A stretch of DNA of 64,000 bases, taken from Octopus vulgaris (taxonomy: Eukaryota). Shown one piece after another: positions 3,745 through 62,168 of the stretch. The stretch lies in assembly GCA_951406725.2 (NCBI GenBank), contig OX597831.1:16678001-16742000 (forward strand), in the 5' to 3' direction. The notes beneath the pieces were generated by a model. The model did no database searches and was not told the origin of the DNA. It saw nothing but the letters and a program-made list of their open reading frames with translations. Both the position numbers and the translations under genes were made by a program. Every line of letters begins with the position of its first letter. Within the stretch, counting starts at the first letter, position 1.

Positions 3745-4080
3745 ATTTCGTTTTTGGATTTGCTTTGTAAGATTCTTTGCAAGATATGAGTTCGTGTGTT
3801 GAAACATATTCTGTTGTGTCTGGAGAGAGTCATTTTCTTTTTGAGCCTTGCAATTTAACACAATCACCGGTAATATTTCCACTTATTTTTTATTCATATT
3901 TTCGTAAAATTTTCGTTGCATCTTGCAACCGCTTCAATAGTCTTGAGTATTGAAAATTTGCAAGACGCAACGAAAATTTTAGGAAAATAAAAATAAATAT
4001 TAAGTGGAAAGATTACCAGTGATTGTGTTAAATTGCAAGGCACAAAAAGAAAATGACTCTCCCTAGACACAACAGAATAT
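3745..4080. repeat. Dispersed repeat forming a palindrome with about 135-bp arms; probably a Penelope-like terminal repeat
   Basis: 3806-3940 is the reverse complement of about 3947-4080; related copies at 22155-22407 and 51931-52129. Confidence 0.75.
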
Positions 4081-4752: not shown

Positions 4753-7700
4753 GAGAACACCGGGGGACGTTTACGGAGAACACCGGGGGACGTTTAAGAT
4801 GTAAGAAGGAAAATACAGAGCTCCGAAATCTATCCACAAACATCGAAAACAAGGACATCCTATGGAGCCAAAGTTTTACTAACAAAGAATTGGACTGTAT
4901 CCGAGTAAGTAATACAAATTGAAATTTATTGCTATTTTCGAAACGAAATGATGTATTTTGACTCGATATCATCTCCACCTCTAACGCAACACATGTAAAC
5001 ATGCGTGAAACATCACGATCATCTCCGACCCCAAACACCATGTACAAAGGAACTACGAAGAAATTAAATGCCACCAATATTATTCAACCCAAGAATAACA
5101 AAAGAGCGGTACGTACATTAAACTTACAACACAAAATGTACGAAAACTACACGTGCAAAACAATGTGACAACAGAAATGAACGGACCGGTACCCTACGAA
5201 AATGACGACCGTCAAAATAATGGGCCGGATGTTGTACCTCATGTCCCGCAAATAAAACCCAAAAGACATAAATGTACACGTGAGGAATACATTTCTATCT
5301 TACACGCATACTTCACAGCAGTGCTCTACCCAAAAAATGAAAACACAACAACACATACATATAAAATATGGAAGGAAAACAACATAAATATAGGCTTGGA
5401 TACAGCAATGAACACTAATAAATTAGCTAACGTACGAAGATACATTCTCAAAGCCAAAAAAATATCAGAAATAGAAATAGAACATTTAAAAGAAAAAATA
5501 CGCCAGGAAAATGTAGATAGAAGCCACACAACAATGCCCAATAATATAAACACTGAAACAGTAAAACACGAAGACAAACGAAACATTCCCAACAAACACG
5601 ATGTAAACAACGAAGGGGAGCCTAATGATTATGATAATATAAAAAGTAAAATAATCAAAGAACTGAAAACCACAGAGCTCAAAATGTACCACCGACCATA
5701 CCTCCCAAGAATCAAAATAAACAAAATAACAACACCTATTATAAACAGCATAAACCTAGCCGTCACGGAACTAATAGCCACTGAAAGAAAAAGCGATATC
5801 ACTGAGCTAAATGATTAATATACGCAGCAGCCACTGCAGCCACAAAAGAAGCTGGATACTCACTCAAACCCACCCAAACAGGAGTACCACCACCCAAACA
5901 AAACCAAATCAGCAAACAATCAACGCTACTAAGCAACATGAAGAAAAAAAAATACTCCGCAAATATAACATCACAGAAAAAGATTTACCTGAGATAAAAG
6001 AAAAGCTGAAGCAAGATATCCTTGCCAAAGCACAAAGGATCCGCCGGTACGAGAAACGCCAGCGCTTCTTTGAACAAAACAAAAAGTTCAACTCCAACCC
6101 CAAAAAGTTCTACCAAGAACTTGGCAAAGATAAAATAGAAATCACTGCAGCACGAACGGCAGAGGAAGTGGAAGATTTCTGGAGAGAAATATGGTCGACG
6201 AACGAACAAACAGAAAAAAAGGAGTATCAAAAAAACAAACTCGGCATCTGAACAACTTTAGTTCCCCATAACAACTGAAGAGGTCACCCAGGCACTGCAA
6301 AGACTAAGCAACTGGAAGGCACCTGGGCATGACAAGATCCCCAACTTCTGGTTGAAATATCTAACAGGAATGCACAAAAAGCTGGCTGAAACTTTAACAG
6401 CATACTAGCAGAGTCAGAGACAATGCCTGAATGGCTCACGAAGGGGAAAACCATCTTAATTCCCAAATCAAACGAGACAGCAAAACCAGAAAACTACAGA
6501 CCATTAATCTGTCTCCCTACAATGTTCAAGGCATTTACTGCAGTGATATCGCACATGTTGAACAAGCACCTGGACGAAAACAAACTGTTCCCAGAAGAGC
6601 AGAAAGGATGCCGCAAAGGCTCGTTTGGCTGTAAAGATCAACTATTGATTAATAAAGCCATAACTGAAGACAGCCAAAGAAAGAAGAAAGGCCTCAGTAT
6701 TGCCTGGATTGACTACAAAAAGGCGTTTGATAGCATCCCCTACACATGGATCCTCGAAACACTAGCCATTAACAAAGTAAAACCAACAATCATAAAATTC
6801 ATAGAGCACTCTATGAATAAATGGCAAACAGTGCTACACCTCCAAACAAAAGAGGGACTCATGAAAACCAAAGACATCCCCATTAGAAGAGGAATATTCC
6901 AGGGAGACACGCTCTCTGCACTCCTTTTCTGCTTGGCACTGTCACCTCTATCTGATATGCAAAATAGAACTGGATGCGGATATAAATTTTACGGCAAAAC
7001 GATCAGCCACCTTTTATATATGGATGACCTAAAACTATACGCTGCAAATGACAAACAGCTGACAACAATATTAAAGACAGTTCATGGATTTACCAAAGAA
7101 ATAGATATGAAATTTGGATTAGAAAAATGCGCCAAAGTAACCATGAAAAGAGGAAAACTAGTTAAGAGTAACAACATCACACTAGATAAAACCAATGAAA
7201 TAACAGAATTAGACCAAAGCCAAACTTACAAATACTTAGGAATCCATGAACTAGATAAGACACAACTCACACAAATGAAAGAGAAAATAAAAAAAAGAAT
7301 ATTATAGACGAGTTAGATGAATACTAAAAACAGAGCTCAATGCTAAAAACAAGATAATAGGTATTAACACTTTAGCTGTCCCAGTTATAAGTTACAGCTA
7401 CAATGTCCTTAACTGCACACGAAATGAACTGACCAAAATAGATAGGAAAACAAGAAAAATAATGACAGGATCTAGGATGCATCACCCAAAATCTGACATA
7501 GAAAAACTATATATACAAGGTATATAAGGTGGTAGAGGACTTATACAACTGGAAAACTACTATAAAATAACCACCATAGGACTGCAAAAATATCTACTTC
7601 AGAAGGAAAGATAACTGATACAAATAGCGGCAAAATACGAGCAAAACAAAAAACTGTTCTCAGTATTTAAGGAAGCTGACAAATACAAACAAAAAATCAT

Positions 7701-8740
7701 ACCACCTAATAAATATAAAGAAGAAGAAGAAGAAGAAGAAGAAGAAGAAGAAGAAGAAGAAGAAGAAGAAGAAGAAGAAGAAGAAGAAGAAGAAGAAGAA
7801 GAAACAACAAAAGCTATAAAACAAATGAAATCCAAACTAAAAATAGAACAGCAACGAACCATGATAAAACGATGGCAAGAAAAGCCCCTTCAAGGTAAAT
7901 ACTGGACTAAACTAAACGCAAAAGAAATAAACAAAGAAAAATCCCAGCAATGGTTGAGAAGCTCAGGACTCAAAGCAGAGACAGAGAGATTTTTAATTGC
8001 AGCACAAGACCAAAGCCTCCCCACCAGAAATTACCAAAAACATGTAATGAAAAGAAATATTACAAGTAACTGCAGAATATGTGGAGATGGACAAGAAACA
8101 ATAAATCATATTATCTCTAGCTGCCCAGTCCTGGCTAAGAAGGAATATATTTACAGACATGACAGAGTTAGAACCTACATACATTGGAAGCTATGCCAAC
8201 GTTATGGAATAACAACAGAAAAAAGATGGTATAGGCACACACCAGAAAAGGTCACAGAAAACGAGAAAGCAACCATACTCTGGGATATGCCAATATACAC
8301 AGATAGAGAAATTAAGGCCAACAGGCCAGATATAGTTGTCAGAGATCATGAAGAAAAAAAATGTCTCCTAATTGATGTATCAATACCGGTAGATGACAAA
8401 GTGTCTCTAAAAGAAATGGAGAAACTCTCAAAATACAAAGACCTGGAAATAGAGGTTACCGGAATGTGGAATCTAAAAACATAAACAATATCTATCATAG
8501 TAGGTGCATTAGGCATGATAAAAAATATTCAGACAAATACATAACAAAAACACCAGCACTTACAAACACATATAACATACATAACATTGCACTACTAGGC
8601 ACTGCACACATCCTACGCAGAACACTTTCCATACAATAACCATCAGAGCATCACAACAAATCACAGCAGATACCAAAGGCACACAGAGCTGCGCTCAGTA
8701 GTGAAGTGAAAGCACGCTATAAAAATAAAACTACTGAATG
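4753..8740 (+). mobile_element. Near full-length R4/Dong-clade non-LTR retrotransposon (RT plus restriction-like endonuclease), frameshifted; family A
   Basis: ORFs 5153-5818, 5811-6251, 6423-7307 (WIDYKKAFDS, GIFQGD, YMDD) and 7825-8484 (CRIC..H..C, RHD, RPDIVV..DVS..EKLSKY); flanked by (TAA)n on both sides. Confidence 0.92.
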
Positions 8741-11659: not shown

Positions 11660-12600
11660 AAAACCTCTCTATGGCAAATACCCAAAGAGAGCGAATAATG
11701 CAGATATTGACAAAGCCCTGACCCATCAATGGCTAATGGCCTCTGGCTTAAAATCTGAAACAGAAGGGTTTATCATAGCAGCTCAAGATCAATGCCTACC
11801 AATAAGAAACTACCAGGCCAACATATTAAAGAACGGCAGTAGCCCAAATGTCGTGTATGTCGACAACAAAATGAAACCATTGATCATGTTGTCTCCAAGT
11901 GCAGTCTTCTAGCGCCTACAGAGTACCTCAACAGGCATGATAGAGCTGCACAATATATTCACTGGGTAATTTGCAAAAACCTGGATTTGCCACATGAAAA
12001 AATCTGGTGGGAACACAATCCACCTCCAGTGCTTGAAAAGGACCACATCTCACTCCTCTGGAACTTCACCATTCAAACTGACAGGAAGATAGATGCAAAT
12101 AGGTCAGACATCATATTGAAAGACTTCAGACAAAGAACATGCCTCCTCATTGATATGACTGTCCCAATCGATATAAACGTATCTGTCAAGACCTACCAAA
12201 AACTGAGCAAATATAAAGATCTTGAAAGAGAAATGAGCAAAATGTGAGAACCTGAAGACTAAAACAATACCTGTTGTCATAGGTGCCCTGGGAATGATTG
12301 CTACCTAACTCAGACACTAGGAAACCTCAAAATGGCAAAAATTCAAAAGATAGTGCTCATGGGAACTGCTCATATCCTACGCAAAATACTCTCTATGTAA
12401 TCCCAAGGTTTAAAACAAACTTTTTTTTAAAAATTTATTTATTAGACATTCACTAGTACAACACCAAATAAAAACCCCAAATATATGGCACACTAGGCAT
12501 AATAACAACGTGAACTTCCAACCTGTTGTCCCTTGAGGTCTCTGGGTGAGACTTGGAGCCAACTTGTACAAACATAAAGCAAAAGTCAAACATAGAATAA
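11660..12600 (+). mobile_element. 5'-truncated R4/Dong element, family B
   Basis: LKSETEGFIIAAQDQ, RHD and KLSKYKDL motifs; (TAA)n at both ends. Confidence 0.88.
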
Positions 12601-12611
12601 TAATTATAATA

Positions 12612-12740
12612 TTGAAAAATATGTTAGGGATGAGATATTTTCCTTAAGACACCTGATGAAGTCTGGAGGGATTACCTGCCGAAACGGTGTTAACAGTAAA
12701 GGAGACGAGGACAAATATCTGTCAAATGTAAATAACGTAC
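12612..12740 (+). mobile_element. Penelope-like terminal fragment with degenerate hammerhead motif
   Basis: CTGATGA at 12653 followed by a hairpin and GAAAC. Confidence 0.4.
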
Positions 12741-18502: not shown

Positions 18503-19530
18503 GGGAACTTCATGGCTGGGAAGGGGTGAAAATCAGAGGGTGCAAGGTCAGGAGAGATGGGGGAGGAGTTAATAGCCGCAAGCCTGTGCTTCTGATCTGG
18601 CGACAAGCGAGTTGTGGACCAGAGCGTTGTCCTGCAGGAGGAGGATGCCTTTGCTGATCTTGCCCCACCTCTTGATTTTGATAGCTTCTCTTAATTTCCT
18701 CAAAAGTGAAGCATAATAGGCCCCTGCAATTGTGGTACCCTTTGCCAGGAAATATGTCATCACTCTCCGTTCTGGTCCCAGATGACCTTGCCAGTGGAGG
18801 GCTGCACCCTTGCCTTCTTTGGGAGGAGGTGAGTCAAGGTGCTTCCACTGCATTGACTGGGCTTTGGTCTCTGGATCATAGTGATGGACCCAGGTTTCAT
18901 CCTGTGTAATCAGCCTTTTGAAGACTCGTCTTCTTGGCACATCTCCAAATTCATCCTCGAGCACTCGACGCGTTCTTGCTTCTGGAAAGGTTTGAGCAAC
19001 CTGGGAATCCATCTGGCAGACACCCTTTGCATATGCAAATGGTCATGAATGATAGTTTCCACAGACCCGGTACTAATCTTGACCTCACGGGCTATTTGGC
19101 GAATAGTTATGCGTCGATCTTCCAAAATGGAAGCCTCAACTTAGCGGACAGATGCCTCATCAATGGCAGAAGGGAGCGACCAGATCTGGGAGCTGTTTCC
19201 ACAGAGTTCCGATCATGTTTGAATTCACGATGCCAGCGTTTTACAAGGTCATATGATGGGGCATCATCACCATAAGTTACTTTCATTTCATCAAAAGTCT
19301 CCCGTGGTGTGCGTCCTTTCAAATACAAAAACCGGATCACTGCTCGACACCTAATAGGCTCCATTTCACACTTGACTCAGTTCAAACACCTGTAAATCAG
19401 AAACCACAATTAGTTCAGAGCTGTAATTTGCTACTTAATCTATAGAGATATGAATAATTGGACATGCAAAATTAGATCAAAAGTTAGATCAAACGACTGC
19501 AAGTGGGTCAGGGGCATTACTTATTGAACG
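18503..19530 (-). mobile_element. Mariner transposon, frameshifted and 3'-truncated
   Basis: HTH ORF 19107-19364, WIPRLL, ITQDETWVHHYDPE, LLQDNA and SPDLAPSDFH motifs; one terminal end at about 19530 followed by TA. Confidence 0.9.
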
Positions 19531-30580: not shown

Positions 30581-31193
30581 CAAGGTGAGATTAAAATGTT
30601 TTCGCTTTAAGTGTATCGCGAAATCCCTAGCTAGAGGTCCAACCTTCCGAATTCTTTTATAAGGCTAATAAAACATGAAAGACTGTTGCAATATAGGGAT
30701 TAAGTTGAATAAAATCTTATCTAATTAATCCTCCTGAACTTTCATTAAACCTAAACTAGGTATTATGAAGCGCCCCGACACGCGCATATTTTTGCTTGTA
30801 TGTGTGTTTGTGTGTGTGTTTCCTTGTGTTTGTATATGTATATGTGTGTTTGTGAGATGTTCGTCTCTATGTCATAAAGTTCAGAAAACTTTCCGTGTTA
30901 AAGCTTTAAACGATTCATTTTACTTTGTGTCTCCTAGTAAATACCGGAAGCATTTTGAGTGTTTCGTTGAAATATCACGTTATTGTACAGGATATTTCGG
31001 ATTCGTGTATGAACGCGCCTGTCCGGTAATGTATTTCCATTCATTGGTCTCATTTGTTAAATTAGCTTTGAATAGTTCACTATATTCTATATACTACTAC
31101 TACTGCTACTATTAATAATAATAGTAATAATAATAATATTAATAATAATAATAATAATAATAAAAATAATAATAAAAATAATAATGATAATAA

Positions 31194-31890
31194 GAGTATC
31201 TCAACAGGCATGATAGAGCTGCACAATAAATTCACTTGGTAATTTGCTGAAGCCTGGACTTGCCCCATGATAAAAACTGGTGGGAACACAAACCACCGCC
31301 AGTGCTTGAAAATGACCACATTTCACTGCTGTGGAACTTCACCATTCAAACTGACAGGAAGTTAGACGCGAATAGGCCAGCCATCATAGTAAAAGACTTC
31401 AGACAAAAAACATGCCTCCTCATTGATATGACTGTCCCAATCGATATAAACGTATCTGTCAAGACCTACCAGAAACTGAGCAAATATAAAGATCTGGAAA
31501 TAGAAATCAGCAAAATGTGGAACCTGAAGACTAAAACAATACCTGTTGTCATAGGTGCCCTTGCAATGATAGCAAAAGGGGCTGATTGCTACCAAACTGA
31601 GATACCAGGAAACCTAAAAATTGCAGAAATGCAAAAGATAGTGCTCATGGGAACTGCTCATATCCTACGCAAAATACTTTCTTTCTAAACTCAAGTTTTA
31701 AAACAAACATAATTTTTGTATGGTTTTTTAGGCATTCACTAGTACAACACTAAGTACAAGACCAAATATATGGCACCCTAGGAATAACACCAACATGTCC
31801 TTCCAGCTTGTTGTCTCTTGAGGTCTCTGAGTGAAACTTGGAGCCAGCTTGTGCAAATTTAAAGCAAAAGTCAAACATAGAATAATAATA
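31194..31890 (+). mobile_element. 5'-truncated R4/Dong element, family B
   Basis: ORF 31260-31688 is the RLE domain; (TAA)n flanks. Confidence 0.88.
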
Positions 31891-32109
31891 ATAATATTTC
31901 CAACAATCATTATTTTCATTGTTGTTAAGGTGGTAGGGCTGCAGAACTGTAAGCATGGCGGTCAGAATACTTAACAGCATTTCGCCCGTTCTTTCCATTT
32001 CTGAGTTCAAATTGCACCAAGGTCGACTTAGCGTCTTATCCTTTTCGATGTCGACAAATTGTGTAGCAGTCATCGTTATTGTTATTATTTTAAGTTTTTT
32101 ATTATTATT

Positions 32110-33286
32110 ATCATATGTTTGACTTTTGCTTTATATTTGTACAAGTTGGCTCCAAGTCACACCCAGAGAACTCAAGAGACAACAGGTTGGAAGTTCACGT
32201 TGTTGTAATGACTAGTGTGCCATATATTTGGTTGTTTTTTGTGTTGAACTGGTGGATGTCTAAAAAAAAAAGTAAAATATGTTTGTTTTAAACCTTGAGA
32301 TTACATATAAAGTATTTTGCGTAGGATATGAGCAGTTCCCATGAGCACTATCTTTTGAATTTCTGCAATTTTGGGGTTTCTTGGTATCTGAGTTAGGTAG
32401 CTATCAGCCCCTTTTGCTATCATTCCCAGGGCACCTATGACAACAGGTATTGTTTTAGTCTTCATGTTCCACATTTTGCTGATTTCTATTTCAAGATATT
32501 TATATTTGCTCAGGTTTTGGTAGGTCTTGACAGATACGTTTATATCGATTGGGACAGTCTTATCAATGAGGAGGCATGTTCTTTGCTTGAAGTCTTTCAA
32601 TATGCTGTCTGGCCGATTTGCATCTTTCTGTCAGTTTTAATGGTGAAGTTCCAGGGGAGTGAGATGTGGCCATTTTCAAGCACTGGAGATGGTTTGTGTT
32701 CCCACCAGTTTTTATCATGGGGTAAATCAAGGTTTTTGCAGATTACCCAGTGTATATATTGTGCAGCTCTATCGTGGTTGTTGAGATACACTGTATGCGC
32801 TAGAAGACTGCACTTGGAGACCACATGATCAATTGTTTCATTTTGTTGCTGGCATATACGACACGTTGGATTGCTGCTGATCTTTAATATGTTGGCCTGG
32901 TAGTTTCTTGTTGTTAGGCATTGATCTTGAGCTGCTATGATAAACCCCTCTGTTTCAGATTTTAAGCCAGAGGCCATTAGCCATTAATGGATCAGGGCTT
33001 TGTCAACATCTGTATTATTCGCTCTCTTTGGGTATTTGCCGTAGAGAGGTTTTCCTTGCCATTTATCATTCAGAATATCTAAGGCCGCAGATTTAGCACG
33101 GGTTTTCATGCGTTTAGCTTTTTCTGTGTCTGTTTCTTGTATGTCTATCTCTAATTCCGAAATTTGTTGTATTCGGAATTCACTTTGATATTCCTTTGCC
33201 TGTTTTGTTACTGAGTATGTTGCTTTCTTATTTTCATGTTTTGAGACAAATTTTAACATCCAGTCCTCAGAGTTTTTCAGGTAGGT
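32110..33286 (-). mobile_element. 5'-truncated R4/Dong element, family B
   Basis: ORFs 32301-32600, 32597-32977 and 32984-33259. Confidence 0.88.
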
Positions 33287-34085
33287 ATTCAGTAGTTTTA
33301 TTTTTATAGCGTGCTTTCACTTCACTACCGAGCGCAGCTCTGTGTGCCTTGGGTATGTGCTGTGATTTGTTGTGATGCTCTGATGGTTATTGTATGGAAA
33401 GTGTTCTGCGTAGGATGTGTGCAGTGCCTAGTAGTGCAATTTTCTGTATGTTATATGTGTTTGTAAGTCCTGGTGTTTTTGTTATGTATTTGTCTGAATA
33501 TTTTTTATCATGCCTAATGCACCTACTATGATAGGAATTGTTTCTGTTTTCAGATTCCACATTCTAGTTACCTCTATTTCCAGGTCTTTGTATTTTGAGA
33601 GTTTCTCCATTTCTTTTAGAGACACGTTGTCATCTGCCGGTATTGATACATCAATTAGAAAGCATTTTTTTTCTTCATGATCTCTGACAACTATATCTTG
33701 TCTGTTGGCCTCATTTTCTCTATCTGTGTGTATCGGCATATCCCAGAGTATGGTTGCTTTCTCGTTTTCTGTGACCTTTTCTGGTATGTTCCTATACCAT
33801 CTTTTTTCTGTTGTTATTCCATAATGTTGACATAGCTTTCAGTGTATGTAGGTTCCAACTCTGTCATGTCTGTGAATATATTCCTTCTTAGCCAGGACTG
33901 GGCAGCTAGAGATAATATGATTTATTGTTTCTTGTCCATCTCCACATATTCTGCAGTTACTTGTAATATTTATTTTCATTACATGTTTTTGGTAATTTCT
34001 GGTGGGGAGGCTTTGGTCTTGTGCTGCAATTAAAATCCCTCTGTTTCTGCTTTGAGTCCTGAGTTTCTCAAGTCCTGAGCTTCTC

Positions 34086-43809: not shown

Positions 43810-43862
43810 AGGGGCCCGTGAATTAAATTCAAAATTTCATATGTATATATATATATATATAT

Positions 43863-44174
43863 ATTATATAAAAGGGCTTAGTAAAATAAATTACTTTGCC
43901 ACATACTGAACTCATTAGAAATAGCAGCCAAAAAAGTTTTTTTAGCTATTTCTAATACTTAAAGAAAGTTTCTCTCAGATAGTGTTTACTCAGAATAACC
44001 CACGAAGGGGTTATGTTTTTACCCCCATACCTTCGTGGGTTATTCTGAGTAAACACTATCTGAGAGAAACTTTTTTAAGTATTAGAAATAGCTAAAAAAA
44101 CTTTTTTGGCTGCTATTTCTAATGAGTTCAGTATGTGGCAAAGTAATTTATTTTACTAAGCCCTTTTATATAAT
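43863..44174. repeat. Near-perfect palindrome with about 146-bp arms
   Basis: 43863-44008 is the reverse complement of 44030-44174. Confidence 0.95.
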
Positions 44175-44267
44175 GTAATATTTTGAATTCGCCTTAAATG
44201 GTCCCTTTACATACTGAATACTTGGTGAAATTGATTAATAACTAATTAATTTTACCCTCAATTGTTG

Positions 44268-44603: not shown

Positions 44604-44897
44604 TTTGAATTTAATTCACGGACCCCCAGTAATATTTCCGAGGATGGGAAAGACCCTTCTAATCGTTGGAAGACTATAAGGGCACTGCAACATATTATCA
44701 ATTAAGACAATCGACAGAGAAATTTGTGCATTGGTATTGACTGTCAGGAATCTGGTAAGTTAGGAGATTTCCTATTCCGCGGCAGGGGTACAGCAGGTTA
44801 ATCCGTGTAAAGTGTTACTTAACGAGGATAAATACGTCACGGCAACGACATACTTTGTTTCTCTCGTAATAAAACCTCCGTAAGAAAGGATAAATAC

Positions 44898-45148
44898 TGT
44901 TACACATTCATATCTATGTGTATACGTGTGTAGAATACATCCCCACTTTTGGCACTATTTGTTAGTGAACAGTACGAACTGTGTTTTAAAGTAAACAGTA
45001 TTACTACGCTGTGTCTAACGATATACAGGTGTCGCTGCGCTGAAAGTAGCACAGTTCGTGTAACATGGAAAAGTAAATAAACACGTAAAAGAATAACTAT
45101 GCCTCTTATTGAGTTGTCTTTCCCATTAGAACGAAACTACACATAACA
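44898..45148 (+). repeat. 5' LTR (TGTTA...TAACA, 251 bp)
   Basis: Terminal inverted 5-mers, AATAAA, followed directly by the PBS. Confidence 0.9.
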
Positions 45149-45161
45149 TGGTGGCAGCGGT
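45149..45161 (+). promoter_or_regulatory. Primer-binding site, tRNA-Leu-like
   Basis: TGGTGGCAGCGGT is complementary to the ACCGCUGCCACCA 3' end of eukaryotic tRNA-Leu. Confidence 0.75.
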
Positions 45162-48100
45162 AAATAATTAATTGGAAATTGTGACTTTACAACAAAACAG
45201 AAACACAACGAACCAGAAATTAACAAACAAAACATAGCTTCGTCTTCGGACACACATACACGAGAATCCAAAATGGTGAGCCCCGTCGCCGTACAGATGA
45301 ATCTACATCCAACCATGAATTGGGACTCCGGTGTTATCGTAGAAGCGTTTTAGAAATTCAAACAGAAAACTCAACTAGTTTTCAAAAGTTTCCTGAAAGG
45401 CACAACTGAAGAAGAAAAGGTAAGCTATATCCTTTTATGGACGGGAGAGGAGGGCCTAGACCTATTCAATAGCTGGGACATGTCAGAATCGGATTGCAAT
45501 AACCCAGACACACTTCTAGAGAAATTTGAGAGGCACCTAGAGCACAGGTCGAACCATAGAATTCACAGATACGAATTCCAGAGCCTGAAACAAGACCCAC
45601 AAGAAACGATTGACAATTTCCTGTCCAGACTAAAGAATGTTGCCGAAAAGTGCAAATTCAAAGATAAGGACGAAAGAATTGTTGACCAATTAATATGGGG
45701 GTGTATTCATAAAGAAGTTCAGAAATCCCTCATAGGTAAGGACGCTCTCCAGTTGATAGAAGCAGTAGACACTGCAAGAGCATTTCAAGCCACTACCAAA
45801 CAAATGGCCTCACTTACCTTACAAACAAACTCACTAGGCAGCAGTGTAGATATTGTATCTAGGCACAGGACGAAACGCACATGCAAACAAAAAACATGCC
45901 AGTACTGTGGTACAGCGCATGAATTCCATAACCGGAAGAAATGCCCTGCATTCGGTACACACTATAAAGTATGTGGAAAACTTAACCACTGGAAAAAATG
46001 TGTAGGTTGACAACATCCCAGAAATACAAGCTCCAATCTTCAAAGAGGAGCGGAAATAGAAGAAGAAATATATATGCACAACAAAAGGAACAAAACACTT
46101 CAGAGGAGGAATTCTTGGCGGTCGGCAAAATAAATGTACATGAGATGGGAAAGGACGACCAGAAAAAAAATGAGGCATACACAACAATAAGAATTCAAAA
46201 GAAGGCTGGCAAGAAAAGAATAAACATTGACTTAAGGCTGAAGATTGACACTGGAGCCCAGAGTGATATCTTGCCTGTCAACCTTTACAAGAAGATGTTC
46301 CCAGAACACATGCCACAAGAGGATAAAATCAAAGAAGGAATCCTCACTGCGTACGGAGGTACCAGGATTCCACAACTGGGTAAAACAACAATCACAGGGA
46401 CACACAATGGAAAAACAATCAAGTGTTCTTTTAATGTCACAAGAACAGAGGAACCAGCAATTCTTGGACACGATACCTGCAAAAAGCTAAATATTGTGTC
46501 AATCAATGGTGAAGTGAAGGCAGCTCCAAGCAGGATTGACAGAGATATGCCTATCAAAGACCGACCACCAATCACAAACAAAGAGGAATTGATAAGCATG
46601 TACCCTGAATGCTTTCATGATATAGTCGGGTGCTTTGTAAAATGTCGATACCATATAACAGTCAACCCTAATATCAAACCAATTGTTCACCCACCTCGCC
46701 GCGTCCCTCTAGAACTAAAAGAGAAGCTGGAGACAGAGTTGGACAGAATGGAAAAAAAAAGAAATAATCACCAAAGTGACACGACCAACAGACAGGGTAA
46801 ATTCAATTGTGATCAAGGAAAAACCCAATGGTACCCTACGGATATGCCTCGACCCAAGGGACCTGAACAAGGCATTAAAAAGAGAGTACCATCCAATTCC
46901 AACCCTTGAAGAAATCACACCATCATTGGCTGGGTCCAAATTATTCAGCTAACTGGATGCCAGTAATGGGTACTGGAATGTAAAGATAGGCGAAGAGTCA
47001 TCCATGCTCACTACCTTCAACACACCATTTGGCAGATATCGATTCAGCCGTCTCCCATATTTTGGATTGAAGGTGAGCCAAGATGTTTTCCAGCGCCAAA
47101 TAGATGAGACTTACCAAGGCTGCAAGGGAGCAATTGGAATAGCAGAAGACATCCAAGTGCATGGCAAGGATGAGACCACACATGACTTCAATTTACATGA
47201 AGCTATGCAGAAAACCCGACAAGCAGGCATCAAACTCAATGCAGACAAGTGTGTGATAAAAGCAAAGAAGTGCAAATTCTTTGGAATTATATACTCTGCA
47301 GAGGGATTTAAACCAGACCCCGCTAAAGTGGAAGCCATTAGAGACATTAAAGAACCTAAAGACGAGAAGGAACTCAGGAGCTTCCTGGGACTCATCCACT
47401 ACATGGGAGCCTTCATACCCAAGCTGGCTGATCACACTGCAAATCTCCGAGAACTAAACAGAGATGACGTAGAGTTTGATTGGTGTGCTTCACGCACACA
47501 GGATTTCGAAGCGATCAAAAAGCTCATCAGTAAGGAGACAACTCTGCAATAGTATGACAGACGCAAACCAATAATACTCCAAGTCGATGCATCTATGAGA
47601 GGAGTTGGCGCAGCACTGATACAGGAAGGTAAACCCATTGCATATGCCTCGAAAGCTCTCTCACCCACAGAGACAAGGTACGCAAATATTGAAAGGGAAC
47701 TCCTGGCAGTAGTATATGGATGTGAAAAGTTCCATACATACCTGTATGGCAGACATTTCTATATTGAAACAGACCATCGCCCGCTAGAACAAATACATAG
47801 AAAACACCTCACAAAAGCACTAGCCAGACTGCAAAGATTACTGTTAAGGCTTCAAATATGCGACTACGATATCAGGTACAAGCCAGGAAAAGACCTGATA
47901 TTGGCGGATGCTCTTTCCAGACTATCATCACATGATAAACAGGAGATGGAAGGACTAAGCATAAAGGTGCACCACATTGTAAATGTGACAACCACAAAGA
48001 TAGCAGAAATCAAAGAGGCAACCAGCAGAGATGAAGAACTTCAGCTCCTTACTCAGATGGTGATTCAGGGGTGGCCAGAAAAGAGACATCAGGTGCAGTC

Positions 48101-49092
48101 CCTAATTCGTGAATATTGGGCCATCTATGATGATATATCAGTGGAGAATGGAATCCTGATGGCTGGATCCCGAATAATTATACCCAAGTCAATGAGAAAA
48201 GAGATTCTGGACAAGATCCACCCAGGGCATCTAGGAATGGAGAAATGCATGCTTCGAGCCAAGTCAGCAGTATACTGGGTAGGCATGTACAAAGACATAG
48301 AGAAGACAGTTTCTACATGCCACATCTGTAAAAAGTACAGAAACTCACAACAAAAAGAGGAAATGATATCTAGTGACATCCCAAGAAGGCCATGGCAAAC
48401 TATTGGAGCAGATCTGTTCACAGAGGGCTAAGAATGGTATTTTATTATGGTCTGCTACTACTCCAAATTTCCAATTGTGAGAAAAGTGAAGGACCTGAGA
48501 GCCAAAACAATCAATACAGTGGCTCGAGGACTTCTAGCAGAGCAAGGAATACCAGAGCAGATCATCTGTGACAATGGAACTCGCAAGAATTCAAAAAGCT
48601 AGCCGATGAGTATGGGTTCAATATTACAACCTCATCTCCACACTACCCAAAGGTCATGGGTTTATAGAAAGACAGGTGCAGACAGTGAAGAGAACAATAG
48701 TCAAATGCCGAGAGACTAAGGAAGACCCACACCTGGCACTTCTGTCCCTACGAGCGAACACCACTGAGAGCTGATATGAAATCCCCAGCAGAATTGCTGA
48801 ATGGCAGGAAGTACAAAACTACCCTGCAAGTAAGATCCAACCTCCTATTGACCAGGAAGAGACAAGGGCAAAGTCAGCAGCCACTCAAGAACATTCACAG
48901 AAATATTACAACAAACATGCACAATACTTACCTGAGATACTTGGAGGACAACATGTGCATACTCAAGATCCCATAACTAAAACAAGGATTCCAGCACAGG
49001 TTGTCAGTAGAGCTGAAACCCCAAGATCGTATATAATAGAAACGGAATCTGGTAAGCAGCTTAGACGCAACAGGGCCCATATCCGCCCAACA

Positions 49093-49324
49093 CTAATGGG
49101 AAAGACAACTCAATAAGAAGCATAGTTATTCTTTTACGTGTTTATTTACTTTTCCATGTTACACGAACTGTGCTACTTTCAGCGCAGCGACACCTATATA
49201 TCGTTAGACACAGCGTAGTAATACTGTTTACTTTAAAACACAGTTCGTACTGTTCACTAACAAATAGTGCCAAAAGTGGGGATGTACTCTACACACGTAT
49301 ACACATAGATATGAATGTGTAACA
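49093..49324 (-). repeat. Inverted copy of the LTR (first 232 nt)
   Basis: Reverse complement of 44898-45129 with about 3 substitutions seen. Confidence 0.95.
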
Positions 49325-52300
49325 AATACTAACCAGGGTTTTTTCCCCCTTATTTCCAGTAATGAATACCTATTATTCTAGCAACTATGATTATTCTAAT
49401 GGTGGTGAGTAAGAGAGTAAACCAACGATTAATATTAAACAATGTTTATGATCATGAAATCCGAAAATTGTGATGCCAGAGGTCAATGGACTATTTCAGA
49501 GTCTTCTTGAGATTAATCGACGTACTCATAATAAATTGTCCACGTTACGTCCTAAATGGATAAGGATAATAGAAAGCATGTTTGTCAAGGACTTTAGATC
49601 CACATCAAAGCAGCCTTTAGAGCTAAAGGCGGGTGGATAGTCTGAGCTGATGAGAAGGTTTATTGTGATCTAGCCCACAGATATTTATCAAAATATATTT
49701 ATTTGTCTTGTAATATTTTATCAGTCCCAATATGTTTGAGGCGTATTCGAACCGGTGAACAAAGTATTTACTGCATTTTTTCACGGAAGATATATCCCGT
49801 TTGTTGACAAATGGCGTGTATACACCTACATTCGCCGGTTCAAATGTGTCTCAATCATATTCAGACTGACAATGACGTCACAGGTTTACCCATTACTGCT
49901 TAGCGCTCACCGTCAGGAATCTACTTTTCTATGCATTGCACTCGTTTTATTAAATTAACAAGTATGCCCACAGGTATCTCTTGCGTTCCGTAGATATGTA
50001 AATGTTTTGACCTGTTCATAGTTAGCTGAGCAAGAGTGCAGGTTGTGTGTATACTCATATATTTATTTCGATCAGCACAAATATATCAACATGTTTTAAT
50101 TATTCAGTTTTAATGATATGTTCTGTTTTGATACTGGTAATTATGTAAAAAAAAACAAACCCACTCTTAATCATTGGCTGTCTCCTATATTTACTTTTAA
50201 ATCATTCCATCTGATTGAAACCTCAATATGTTAATTACTGTTGGATTTATTACATGAAAATAGGTTCTCGTTTACGAAAAATATGCATTCATAACATATT
50301 CGACTAATTAAGACAAGGGATTCTGTGACACTGATGTTTGGACTTGTGGTCTGTCGGCAGCTTTCCTCTAAGCAATCAGAATACTCATTTAGATAATTAA
50401 ACCAATAGCAAGCACGCATACAGAATGCTTGTATTTTGATAGTTTGAGGGTATGCTGCTCTTATAGGCATAAGAGAGTATATTCTCTTAGTGCGATTGGT
50501 GTTAAAACACCCGTGAGTCATAGACAAGCGAGATAACTCGCGACAGATCCTATTCAAGAGCGATAGACATCGATGTTTCGTAAATTTTGTGACTCGATTT
50601 TCCATCAGGCGCATGAAGAGGACCTAATCTCTTAAGCATATTTGATATAGTTAAAATTTGTCAAATAAAAAAAGATGTAACTTAAACCATAAAATGAAAG
50701 ATGAACACATGTTAGCATATATAATTAAATATAGCAAATATGTATCTTCACTTATTTAAGGCCAGCACCTGTTACACTATATTACTTAAGACGAAGTTAG
50801 TTGACGGTAAATTTATTTTACTACTTGAACGATTTGTTACGGATAACCAAGATGAAATATTCCATATTCATTTCATTTCTCATTTTCGGTAAGTTTCGAT
50901 TACTGCATATAAACGTCTCACCTGTATAGCTAAGTGGAAATCTCTGTTTATTGTTATCTCTTATTCTGATTCTCGTTAGGACGGCATTTATGCATGTAAG
51001 TGTATACATACACATACAAATAAACACACATCTATTGATGTGAATGTTTCTCTGTGTGTCAATGAATACAAAGGTTACAACACTGATGCTTAAAATTTGA
51101 CCTTTAAAAATACATTATTGCATTCAATTTCCATGCGCAGTGCCTGTTTTCTGTTATGACACAACATCCAGTAATATCTTCTTAACGAGTTTGGTGCACA
51201 AAAGCCATATGAAAACCACACACACACACATACATACGCGCGCGCGAACAAACAAATGTATATATGCGTGCGTGTGTATGTGTGAGCGTTTGTGTGCCAA
51301 TGTATATGCGTGTGTTTCTTCCTTTGCATTCTACCTCTTGTCAATCGATATTAGTTTACCTGTACGTAGCTCTCCATTAAAGGATCCAATTGAATAAATA
51401 TTTGCCTTAAAATAACACTTAAGGTGCACTAGTATGTCTGTAGGCCAAAGACTGAAGAAAGTAATAACAAAACGATAGATGGGTCTTCTTTATATCTATG
51501 TATAAGCGTGCATATAAAGGGTTCAAACTCTCTTTGTATACTATCTCTCACAACATGCACAAACGCGCTCAACGCTATAAACTTATGTAAAAACAATGTC
51601 ATACATGCAGACTTTGCAATATGCGTTTAAATTATATAAATCACTGACTCACATTTATATAAATACAAATACTAAATCTATTTCATTATGCAAAAACTAT
51701 CATCGAAAAAGTGAAGTGTACCCAAGCAAAAAATCGGACTATAAAACAGCAATAATGCAAAAAAGCAAAAATGACACCCAAGTACGTAATTACTCTCGGG
51801 AATTGGCATACTTTGACGAGCTGCTCTATTTTGCTACTAAAATATGTATTAATATTAAGCGTTATTGGTTATAAGAATTAAGGTCTCCACGCAACATTAA
51901 TACAATTGAAGATGGGTCATTTAAAATATATCGTTTTTGGATTTGGTTTCGAAGATTCTTTATATAGGTTCGTGTGTTGAAGCATATTCTCTTGTGTCTA
52001 GGGAGAGTCATTTTCTTTTTTTTTTATAATTTGATTTGTATTATAATTTAACACAATCACCGGTAAAATTTCCACTTATTTCTTATTTTTATTTTGCTAA
52101 AATGTTCGTTGTGTCTTGCAACATTTTCACGCGAGAAGTAGTCAAAACTGCCTTTTGAAGACAGTTTTCTCTTTTGTTTAAATATACACTATTTTATATT
52201 TGAGAATATATTGTCTATTGACATTTTATATATGTTGGACCACTGGACATGAATTTTCAAAAAGAAAAAATTCACTACTATATATATATTTTACGTAAAT

Positions 52301-55470: not shown

Positions 55471-55552
55471 TATATACATATATATATATATATATCAGAA
55501 ATATAAAATTTCTAAATCTCTCATAGAGATATGTACGGTGGTGGGGCGATAG

Positions 55553-55712
55553 AATGGTTGTATACTGTCAATCTAACGTGAACGTGACAGTAGCGGGTTA
55601 CACCACCGCTGTTTAGCCCTAGGAAGCATCGTCGATGCTTCCTAGGGCTAAACAGCTGTAATGTATCCCCCCTACTGTCACGTTCACGTTAGATTGACAG
55701 TATACAACCATT
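55553..55712. repeat. Palindrome with about 79-bp arms and no spacer
   Basis: Centre GCATCG-T-CGATGC at 55632. Confidence 0.9.
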
Positions 55713-56856
55713 ATATATATATATAATCTTTCGAAACTCCGATTACTATAATGACATCCTATTATTATTTTCTCTAAATTAAAACAAATATACATACATA
55801 CGTACATACATACATACATACATAGACGCATACATACACACACACACACATAAACATATATATGTGTGTATGTGTGTTTCGTGATTTATAATGCAAGAGC
55901 AAGAACCTAATTTACATTTATATTTTCCCTTAGATTTATAATCATTCCACACCATTTTAATACTTTCTTTGCAGGATCTCATTGGGATGAAAGCAAAAAT
56001 CTCAAGGAATACGACTGATATATGTCACAGTACCTTCGGTATATGAGTATGGTTTCAATGAATACCATTAGAGTAATACAGCTAAAATATCACATCTCTT
56101 TTCGGCTGATACTGCCTATAATATCACAATAAAGAAGAGATGTATCACTTTAATAATACTTGCACTGGCGATTAGAACTTTGCCTTTGTAAAAGACTGAT
56201 GGTAAATATATTTAAAACGAATCCTAATTAACTGAGCAATATCATAGCAGATCTTAATGCAAATTTGTGAAGACGATCCAGTAGGCAATAAAATACGAAT
56301 TCGTTACTAAAACATTCATATGACTATTATTACATTTTATGTGTTTATACATGACGCAAATCACTGCAAAGCACATACACACACACACACACATTTATAT
56401 TTATATAAGATAAATATAGGCTATCATGCTTTGCATACTGAATATTATCAAAGCAAATTCAACAGTGCCGCCGAATAACAATTAATATACAGAAAAACTA
56501 AATTACAAATACTTATTTCTTTATTGCCCAAAGGAGGTTAATTAAAGGTAGGACAAACAAGAACCCAGAATGGGATTAAATCGACTACATGGACCCCGGT
56601 AATTATCTGGTACTTCCTTAATCGACCCCGAAATGAAGAAGGGCAAAATCGACTTCGGCGGAATTTGAACTCAGAACGTAACAACAGACTAGGCATAACA
56701 AATATTGCGTGAGAGAAAACAGAAGCGAGACAGAAAAATTTAGTAGATATATTGCCATTACCACGAATTTTCTAATTATCTACATTAGAGATACTTCTTA
56801 TACGTTAGTTGATATTCTCACATATATGTATAAACGCACAAACACATATATAACGC

Positions 56857-62000: not shown

Positions 62001-62168
62001 TCAGCGACTGATACCATGATTAGAGACTCCCAACCTATCGCTTCAAAGTCTCTGCTGCAACTGATTCGTTTCCCGCCGGTGTTATGATTTCGGCGTGAAA
62101 CGAATCAGTTGCAGCAGAGACTTCGAAGCGATGGGTTGGGAGTCTCTAATCATGGTATCAGTCGCTGA
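62001..62168. repeat. Palindrome with about 78-bp arms
   Basis: 62001-62078 is the reverse complement of 62091-62168. Confidence 0.92.

Follow-up and report, generated by a model that had tools for sequence, protein, structure and literature searches.

The replication of LTR retrotransposons depends on a polypurine tract and on terminal repeats in direct orientation, and elements of the DIRS type are not known to make a target-site duplication. In DIRS-1, an element encoding reverse transcriptase (RT) is enclosed by inverse long terminal repeats (PMC3950715, accessible text). Ginger1 elements, as described in the accessible portion of the original report (Bao et al., 2010, PMC2836005), carry a gypsy-like integrase between terminal inverted repeats (TIRs) of 40-270 bp that start with TGTNR, are flanked by 4-bp CCGG/CCGT duplications, possess GPY/F and extra domains, and form multi-copy families. 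The step from LTR to TIR is called unclear in that text, which suggests two incidental insertions as its route. Abnormal products of reverse transcription can also become integrated. In cereals, template-switch products were inserted in one step with a 5-bp duplication and similar outer LTRs, as tandem arrangements with three direct LTRs (Sabot and Schulman, 2007, PMC1950507). HIV-1 proviruses likewise include integrated products of failed strand transfer: two carry inversions, and the LTRs are asymmetric in 26 of 88 (PMC9278108). Strong-stop DNA has been invoked to explain an intact 5′ LTR paired with a damaged 3′ LTR (PMC9278108, PMC8264403).

Here we describe a locus of Octopus vulgaris in which two LTRs of a Ty3/gypsy element face each other. 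It lies within a 64,000-nucleotide stretch of contig OX597831.1 (hereafter the window), and comprises the following features.

44,893-44,897, plus strand: left target-site duplication AATAC (read from the sequence; chance of the match 0.002)
44,898-45,148, plus strand: complete 5′ LTR of 251 nt, TGTTA...TAACA, with AATAAA at LTR nucleotide 179 (read from the sequence; left flank and 25 LTR letters present in a contig of run X1)
45,149-45,161, plus strand: primer-binding site TGGTGGCAGCGGT, directly 3′ of the LTR (identical over all 13 letters to the site after the LTR of a relative, L033)
45,273-46,000, plus strand: gag, broken by a stop at 45,351 and a frameshift near 45,990 (tblastn to proteins P0002 and P0003, 62-66% identity; three-frame translation)
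46,000-46,760, plus strand: protease region with a DTG motif at 46,247 and a frameshift near 46,760 (translation, tblastn)
46,760-47,860, plus strand: RT and RNase H, with stops at 46,950 and 47,550 (Pfam RVT_1, E=9.8e-12; RT_RNaseH, E=9.7e-30)
48,180-49,092, plus strand: integrase, comprising the H2C2 domain, core and C-terminal motif up to RRNRAHIRPT (Pfam Integrase_H2C2, E=5e-16; rve, E=0.0029, below cut-off)
49,092/49,093, no strand: junction between the internal region and the inverted LTR, with at most 1 nt of perfect microhomology (read from the sequence)
49,093-49,324, minus strand: inverted copy of LTR nucleotides 1-232, without the last 19 nt (229 of 232 positions identical; outer junction in contigs of 4 of 4 runs)
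49,325-49,329, plus strand: right target-site duplication AATAC (sequence and contigs)

Most of these features are those of a Ty3/gypsy retrotransposon. The order protease, RT, RNase H and integrase follows gag, the 5′ LTR has TG...CA ends and is followed by a primer-binding site, which we take to be of tRNA-Leu type, and the 5-nt AATAC repeat falls within the 4-6 nt expected of the target-site duplication. Its relatives include octopus proteins named K02A2.6-like, and the nearest are copies from Octopus sinensis (92% identity over 292 residues), O. vulgaris and O. bimaculoides, up to 92-93% identical. However, the second LTR is inverted and 19 nt short, the polypurine tract and direct 3′ LTR are missing, and the integrase tail is lost. 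The element is thus of gypsy origin, yet no canonical member of the family, and we presume that it belongs to the Mag lineage. This lineage accounts for more than one third of mollusc gypsy elements (PMC6238403, accessible text).

The inverted repeats also invite comparison with Ginger1 and DIRS. The 232-nt arms begin with TGTTA and thereby fall within the size range and the TGTNR consensus of Ginger TIRs. In contrast to Ginger transposases, which occur without RT or RNase H and with a 4-bp duplication (5 bp in TDD), this copy still contains gag, protease, RT and RNase H sequences, and its duplication measures 5 nt; it is dead, with no further copy observed. The element is not a Ginger, given its RT and RNase H. 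Neither is it a DIRS element, despite the inverse repeats around an RT gene; DIRS elements have a tyrosine recombinase in place of a DDE integrase, whereas this locus has an H2C2/rve integrase, and the seven pieces scanned with Pfam contain no tyrosine recombinase family. The first-pass annotation, made from the sequence alone, had described DNA-transposon-like 232-bp TIRs, and this likeness holds for shape and goes no further, as gag-pol is dead and a second copy was not seen.

The integration of abnormal RT products in one step with a 5-bp duplication links the locus to the cereal insertions, but there the LTRs are direct, whereas here the polarity reverses and both ends are U3 (PMC1950507, accessible text). 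The damaged HIV-1 3′ LTRs are partly deleted but remain direct, and no U3/U3 provirus is described in the accessible text of these reports (PMC9278108, PMC8264403). More broadly, the accessible parts of PMC9278108 and PMC1950507 report inversions, asymmetric LTRs and complex insertions but no U3/U3 insertion. A search directed mostly at open literature and at main texts found no account of such a face-to-face LTR architecture; one report (PMC13370168), in its accessible part, deals with engineered vectors and is off this architecture.

Comparison of the window with itself by BLAST aligned positions 44,898-45,129 with 49,093-49,324 in inverted orientation (232 nt, 229 identical, E=2.9e-114), and the three mismatches are all transitions. 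The left LTR extends 19 nt beyond this arm, ending with CATAACA at 45,148, and is followed immediately by the primer-binding site, so that the left end is normal, as the first-pass annotation had claimed. That annotation was also correct that an inverted LTR lacking its last 19 nt follows the RRNRAHIRP motif, that AATAC stands on both flanks, and that there is neither a polypurine tract nor a direct 3′ LTR. Specifically, no plus-strand purine run of nine or more letters occurs between 48,900 and 49,324, and self-BLAST yields no direct second LTR in the window. From the composition of the flanks, the probability that AATAC matches by chance is 0.002. A candidate polypurine tract for a second element on the minus strand (49,339-49,351) was discarded, since it stands 14 nt away from the LTR in a flank of low depth, and the minus strand of the window has no gypsy coding match.

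The assertion that both outer ends are the same U3 terminus requires one qualification. The inverted arm does start at LTR nucleotide 1, but the LTR termini, TGTTA and TAACA, form a 5-nt inverted repeat. The outermost TAACA at the right is equally the normal end of a U5 region, and the right end can therefore be recognised as U3 only from nucleotide 6 onward. The flanks provide no further homology.

In total, gag-pol has four in-frame stops and about six frameshifts. The integrase alone carries a stop at 48,429 and frameshifts near 48,580, 48,645, 48,757 and 48,826. The segment from 45,354 to 46,007, in the gag region, gives no Pfam match. As far as seen, the element is a single dead Ty3/gypsy copy.

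To examine the ends in independent sequence, we used contigs from 4 of 24 listed public runs, none of them listed as an RNA run (X1, X2, X5 and X7), representing three organisms designated A, B and C, with a bridging rule of 31 letters; X1 may be the source sample itself. The right junction, consisting of the inverted U3 end, AATAC and flank, is present in contigs of all four runs. On the LTR side it is covered by 43 letters in X7, which satisfies the bridging rule, and by 25 letters in X1, X2 and X5, which is under it. The right flank differs from the window at 0 of 728 positions in X1, 1 of 701 in X2, 11 of 731 in X5 (organism B) and 22 of 734 in X7 (organism C). Since the same junction is shared by organisms A, B and C with diverged flanks, the inverted end must be older than the split between A and C. 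Gross misassembly of the right end, which would have undone the first-pass reading, is excluded by its presence in contigs of 4 of 4 runs. The left junction is found only in X1 (25 letters), and X2, X5 and X7 have no cover of the left flank, which contig filtering can cause. The first-pass annotation had also pointed to an empty site with a single AATAC as a check; no joint for such a site is among the 15 of 20 listed from contigs of the four runs.

At the inner junction, translation shows RRNRAHIRPT ending at 49,092. The residue that follows this motif is proline in 15 of 16 proteins that contain it, so that perfect microhomology of 1 nt is permitted. In a set of 20 family hits, the integrase tail continues in frame beyond the motif in 11 (60 residues in P0121), and the end of the tail is present in four more. 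Because family copies keep this tail, the loss here comprises no less than 183 nt, counting the integrase tail with its stop codon, together with the polypurine tract. The junction lies 60 codons before the end of the family reading frame; the frame now closes 7 codons past the junction, and the lost tail is of low complexity. The letters AACA just upstream of the junction resemble a U5 end and occur with a frequency of 0.011 in the internal region. An integrase-made inner junction built from this AACA was considered and rejected, as a frequency of 0.011 is too weak after several looks.

The peptide created by the junction is found in 0 of 139 proteins, its exact nucleotide pattern has 0 matches in metagenome contigs, and none of the pieces listed from the four runs crosses 49,092/49,093, although contigs drop rare variants. 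Within these proteins, metagenome contigs and listed pieces, we saw no sign of a propagating family with the same ends.

Related copies show what is normal for this clade. Among 79 related metagenome loci, of which 40 had more than 150 nt on both sides, direct flanking repeats occur in 29, some of them being overlaps of contig ends, and inverted repeats occur in none. This distribution indicates that inverted LTRs are not the normal form of the clade. In several of these loci a purine tract immediately precedes the 3′ LTR. Viral contigs contain no relatives. Family copies are numerous, with a depth about two orders above that of the flank, and their LTRs vary by indels and substitutions in the run contigs. 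A form that skips 1,357 nt of the internal region has depths of 827, 478, 883 and 180 in the four runs, compared with flank depths of about 60, 16.5, 17-24 and 3.5; contig depth does not equal copy number, but these values in 4 of 4 runs indicate that the family amplifies defective forms. In X1, a joint links 48,355 to 44,898; it is given without strand, might come from a copy with a direct LTR, and carries no weight here.

The two arms are considerably more alike than the state of the coding region would predict. Measured against two octopus copies, 37 changes in 663 residues are private to this coding region, which corresponds to 2.6% per site (CI 1.8-3.5). Conserved columns differ at 23 of 297 positions (3.6%, CI 2.3-5.5), and the four stops correspond to a decay of 2.9% (CI 0.8-7.5). 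From the coding decay, 12-17 differences between the arms are predicted versus the 3 seen (P=0.006 and 0.0008), and the divergence is 0.65% per arm (CI 0.13-1.89) versus 2.6-3.6% for the coding region. A simple history of insertion followed by neutral decay is therefore rejected. When the divergence of the organism C flank is used as the standard, about 7 arm differences are expected and 3 seen, which is not significant (P=0.12). One of three things must be added to it: homogenisation of the arms, an already defective parent, or a right arm that was copied from the left one once the element was in place. A-to-I editing in the parental transcript was dismissed as the cause of the mismatch: A-to-G changes (49-53) and T-to-C changes (25-41) follow the A:T composition of 0.373:0.201. 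Editing is also ruled out as the source of the frameshifts, since it makes none.

Plus-strand strong-stop DNA starts at LTR nucleotide 1 and runs to the end of the LTR. We favor, with a probability of roughly 60%, a model in which a single integrase step inserted a U3/U3 cDNA that had been made by a switch of polarity during reverse transcription. According to this model, a plus-strand strong-stop strand would have halted 19 nt before the LTR end and either served as primer on a plus-sense template at 49,092 or been jumped to at that point by the growing plus strand. Completion of this intermediate would yield a molecule with two TG-started U3 ends, and integrase would then have joined both ends to target positions 5 nt apart, creating the AATAC duplication in a single insertion. 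The young appearance of the arms might reflect either later gene conversion between them, which is common between LTRs, or the mobilization in trans of a parent that had already decayed.

Several observations are consistent with this model, among them the age of the right junction, the amplification of defective copies by the family and the integration of reverse-transcription errors in other systems. In addition, the perfect 5-nt duplication encloses the entire unit. Moreover, the inverted arm begins exactly at LTR nucleotide 1 and spans 232 of 251 nt, which is nearly the complete extent of a strong-stop strand, and the junction 60 codons before the end of the reading frame would place it close upstream of the strong-stop priming site. 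Three points argue against the model. An extra process is needed to explain the difference in age between arms and coding region, post-insertion repair on the 5-nt terminal inverted repeat could produce the same structure, and the switch of polarity is backed by at most 1 nt of perfect microhomology. Moreover, the route through a decayed parent finds no sign of a sister copy: 441 places differ, and in the 40 with the best support, which form a biased sample, the letter of the window is nearly absent from the family contigs. The original proposal that integrase joined a cDNA with two left ends therefore draws support from the perfect duplication, the start of the arm at LTR nucleotide 1 and the old junction, and is weakened by possible repair on TGTTA/TAACA and by the ages.

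The most serious alternative, although we consider it unlikely, is that an ordinary direct-LTR insertion was followed later by a break or fork collapse at its 3′ end, whereupon a template switch on TGTTA/TAACA copied LTR nucleotides 1-232 backwards. The source would most simply be the 5′ LTR, rejoined at 49,092, with deletion of the integrase tail, the polypurine tract and the old 3′ LTR and retention of the duplication. The repeat shared by the LTR termini makes such a switch feasible, and the scenario gives the best account of the ages, explaining arms younger than the coding region without extra steps and agreeing with the age limit that organism C provides. However, the breakpoint must fall exactly on the 5-nt repeat, to which the flanks add no homology, and the event must predate the split between A and C. 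Furthermore, breaks between direct LTRs more usually lead to a solo LTR. Simple inversion of the old 3′ LTR fails the test of arm age, as it would retain the full divergence. We rank a pre-integration origin higher than later repair by judging how often each is likely to occur: RT errors are common in integrated copies, and repair needs a breakpoint on the 5-nt repeat.

It is improbable that two cDNA molecules contributed one U3 end each to one integration complex, after which host end-joining trimmed and joined their inner ends. Such an event would yield both the duplication and U3 at both ends, and the near-blunt junction fits end-joining, but the loss from the two molecules would be very uneven (about 0.45 kb versus about 4.4 kb) and would have to stop 19 nt inside an LTR, and the age mismatch would persist. 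Of the two origins first offered for the cDNA, aberrant strand transfer is thus preferred to the end-joining of two molecules.

We judge it very improbable that the outer U3 junctions are real and the link at 49,092/49,093 is a misjoin in the assembly. Consistent with a misjoin are the missing cover of this link among the listed contig pieces, the metagenome search and the protein search, but the piece tables list only part of the pieces, with a further 4,795 pieces and 466 loose ends beyond them, and rare variants drop out of contigs. In addition, two unrelated loci would have U3 ends with the same AATAC at both flanks with a probability of about 0.002, and arms that differ at three sites are not one collapsed copy. 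Finally, two independent opposite insertions joined by a deletion can be set aside as scarcely credible: the family has many copies and incidental opposite LTRs have been proposed as a route to TIRs (Bao et al., PMC2836005, accessible text), but the AATAC match would be a chance event of 0.002, the arms are 98.7% identical even though family LTRs vary, and the window has no minus-strand gypsy coding sequence.

The locus thus holds a genuine and old insertion that is dead and of which no further copy was seen. Without a polypurine tract and with no direct terminal repeat, the unit would not go through another round of retrotransposition; its integrase is broken as well. U3 and the AATAAA at LTR nucleotide 179 are retained in both arms, and judging from the sequence, convergent transcription or fold-back RNA from both arms is possible in principle. 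The LTR folded as RNA gives a z-score of -0.88. Nothing shows a working new element; the locus is best regarded as a rare scar of a known process, probably an integrated error of reverse transcription.

The locus nevertheless carries a caution for LTR dating, as its arms give about one quarter of the age of the coding region. We also considered whether U3/U3 integration might be a recurrent by-product of gypsy replication that converts LTRs in one step into a TIR-bounded integrase unit and so provides a link to Ginger-like transposons, with this copy as a fossil; we regard this as doubtful. Programs that search for direct LTRs would miss such copies, whose frequency can nevertheless be counted. 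The locus gains interest only if genome-wide counts show that U3/U3 insertions recur. If our preferred reading, a cDNA with two U3 ends, is true, then integrase can use a pair of U3 ends in the germ line and one event suffices to turn LTRs into TIRs, a route that would be simpler than the two insertions suggested in the accessible text on Ginger1 (PMC2836005).

Contigs of the gypsy element's relatives from all four public sequencing runs (X1, X2, X5 and X7) carry a 1357-nt internal skip, with its joint at 46579-47937, and in each run the depth of this joint, which is not a copy number, far exceeds that of the flanks. The family contigs contain additional internal skips at 46701-47446 and 47994-48283, and together these skips likely represent amplified non-autonomous deletion forms of the gypsy family.

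Beyond the right AATAC duplication, run contigs reveal a short repeat of high depth at 49660-49839, accompanied near 49828 by loose ends and an opposite-strand joint. A pyrimidine run at 49339-49351, located 14 nt beyond the inverted LTR and equivalent to a minus-strand purine tract, was judged to be a chance occurrence.

The window also holds pieces of other mobile elements:

3806-4080, short MITE-like element with long inverted arms (window self-comparison)
6390-8739, 11660-12613 and 31193-34071, non-LTR retrotransposon pieces (RVT_1 and zf-RVT matches)
18569-19042, minus strand, Transposase_1 (mariner-type) fragment (E=8.5e-08)
43855-44181, short MITE-like element with long inverted arms (43860-44177; 107 nt, 98% identity)
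55549-55716, short MITE-like element with long inverted arms (window self-comparison)
62001-62168, short MITE-like element with long inverted arms (window self-comparison)

Among the non-LTR pieces, which are putatively R4/Dong-like, self-comparison identifies a pair of 3' ends in tail-to-tail orientation (31193-31894, plus strand; 32099-32792, minus strand), adjoined by (AAT)n tracts and with relatives at 7954-8739 and 11660-12613. With 87% identity between them, the two ends look like separate insertions.

Half of the gypsy family's integrase end has an 88% match in P0139, which is annotated in Octopus vulgaris as BRCA1-associated protein-like; the match may reflect fused gene models or exonisation of an element fragment. 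Across 292 residues, 47553-48428 of the gypsy element is 85% identical to the protein P0002, while its identity to elements from a sea urchin and an amphioxus is 78% and 73%, respectively. The gypsy element may possibly have undergone horizontal transfer among marine animals.
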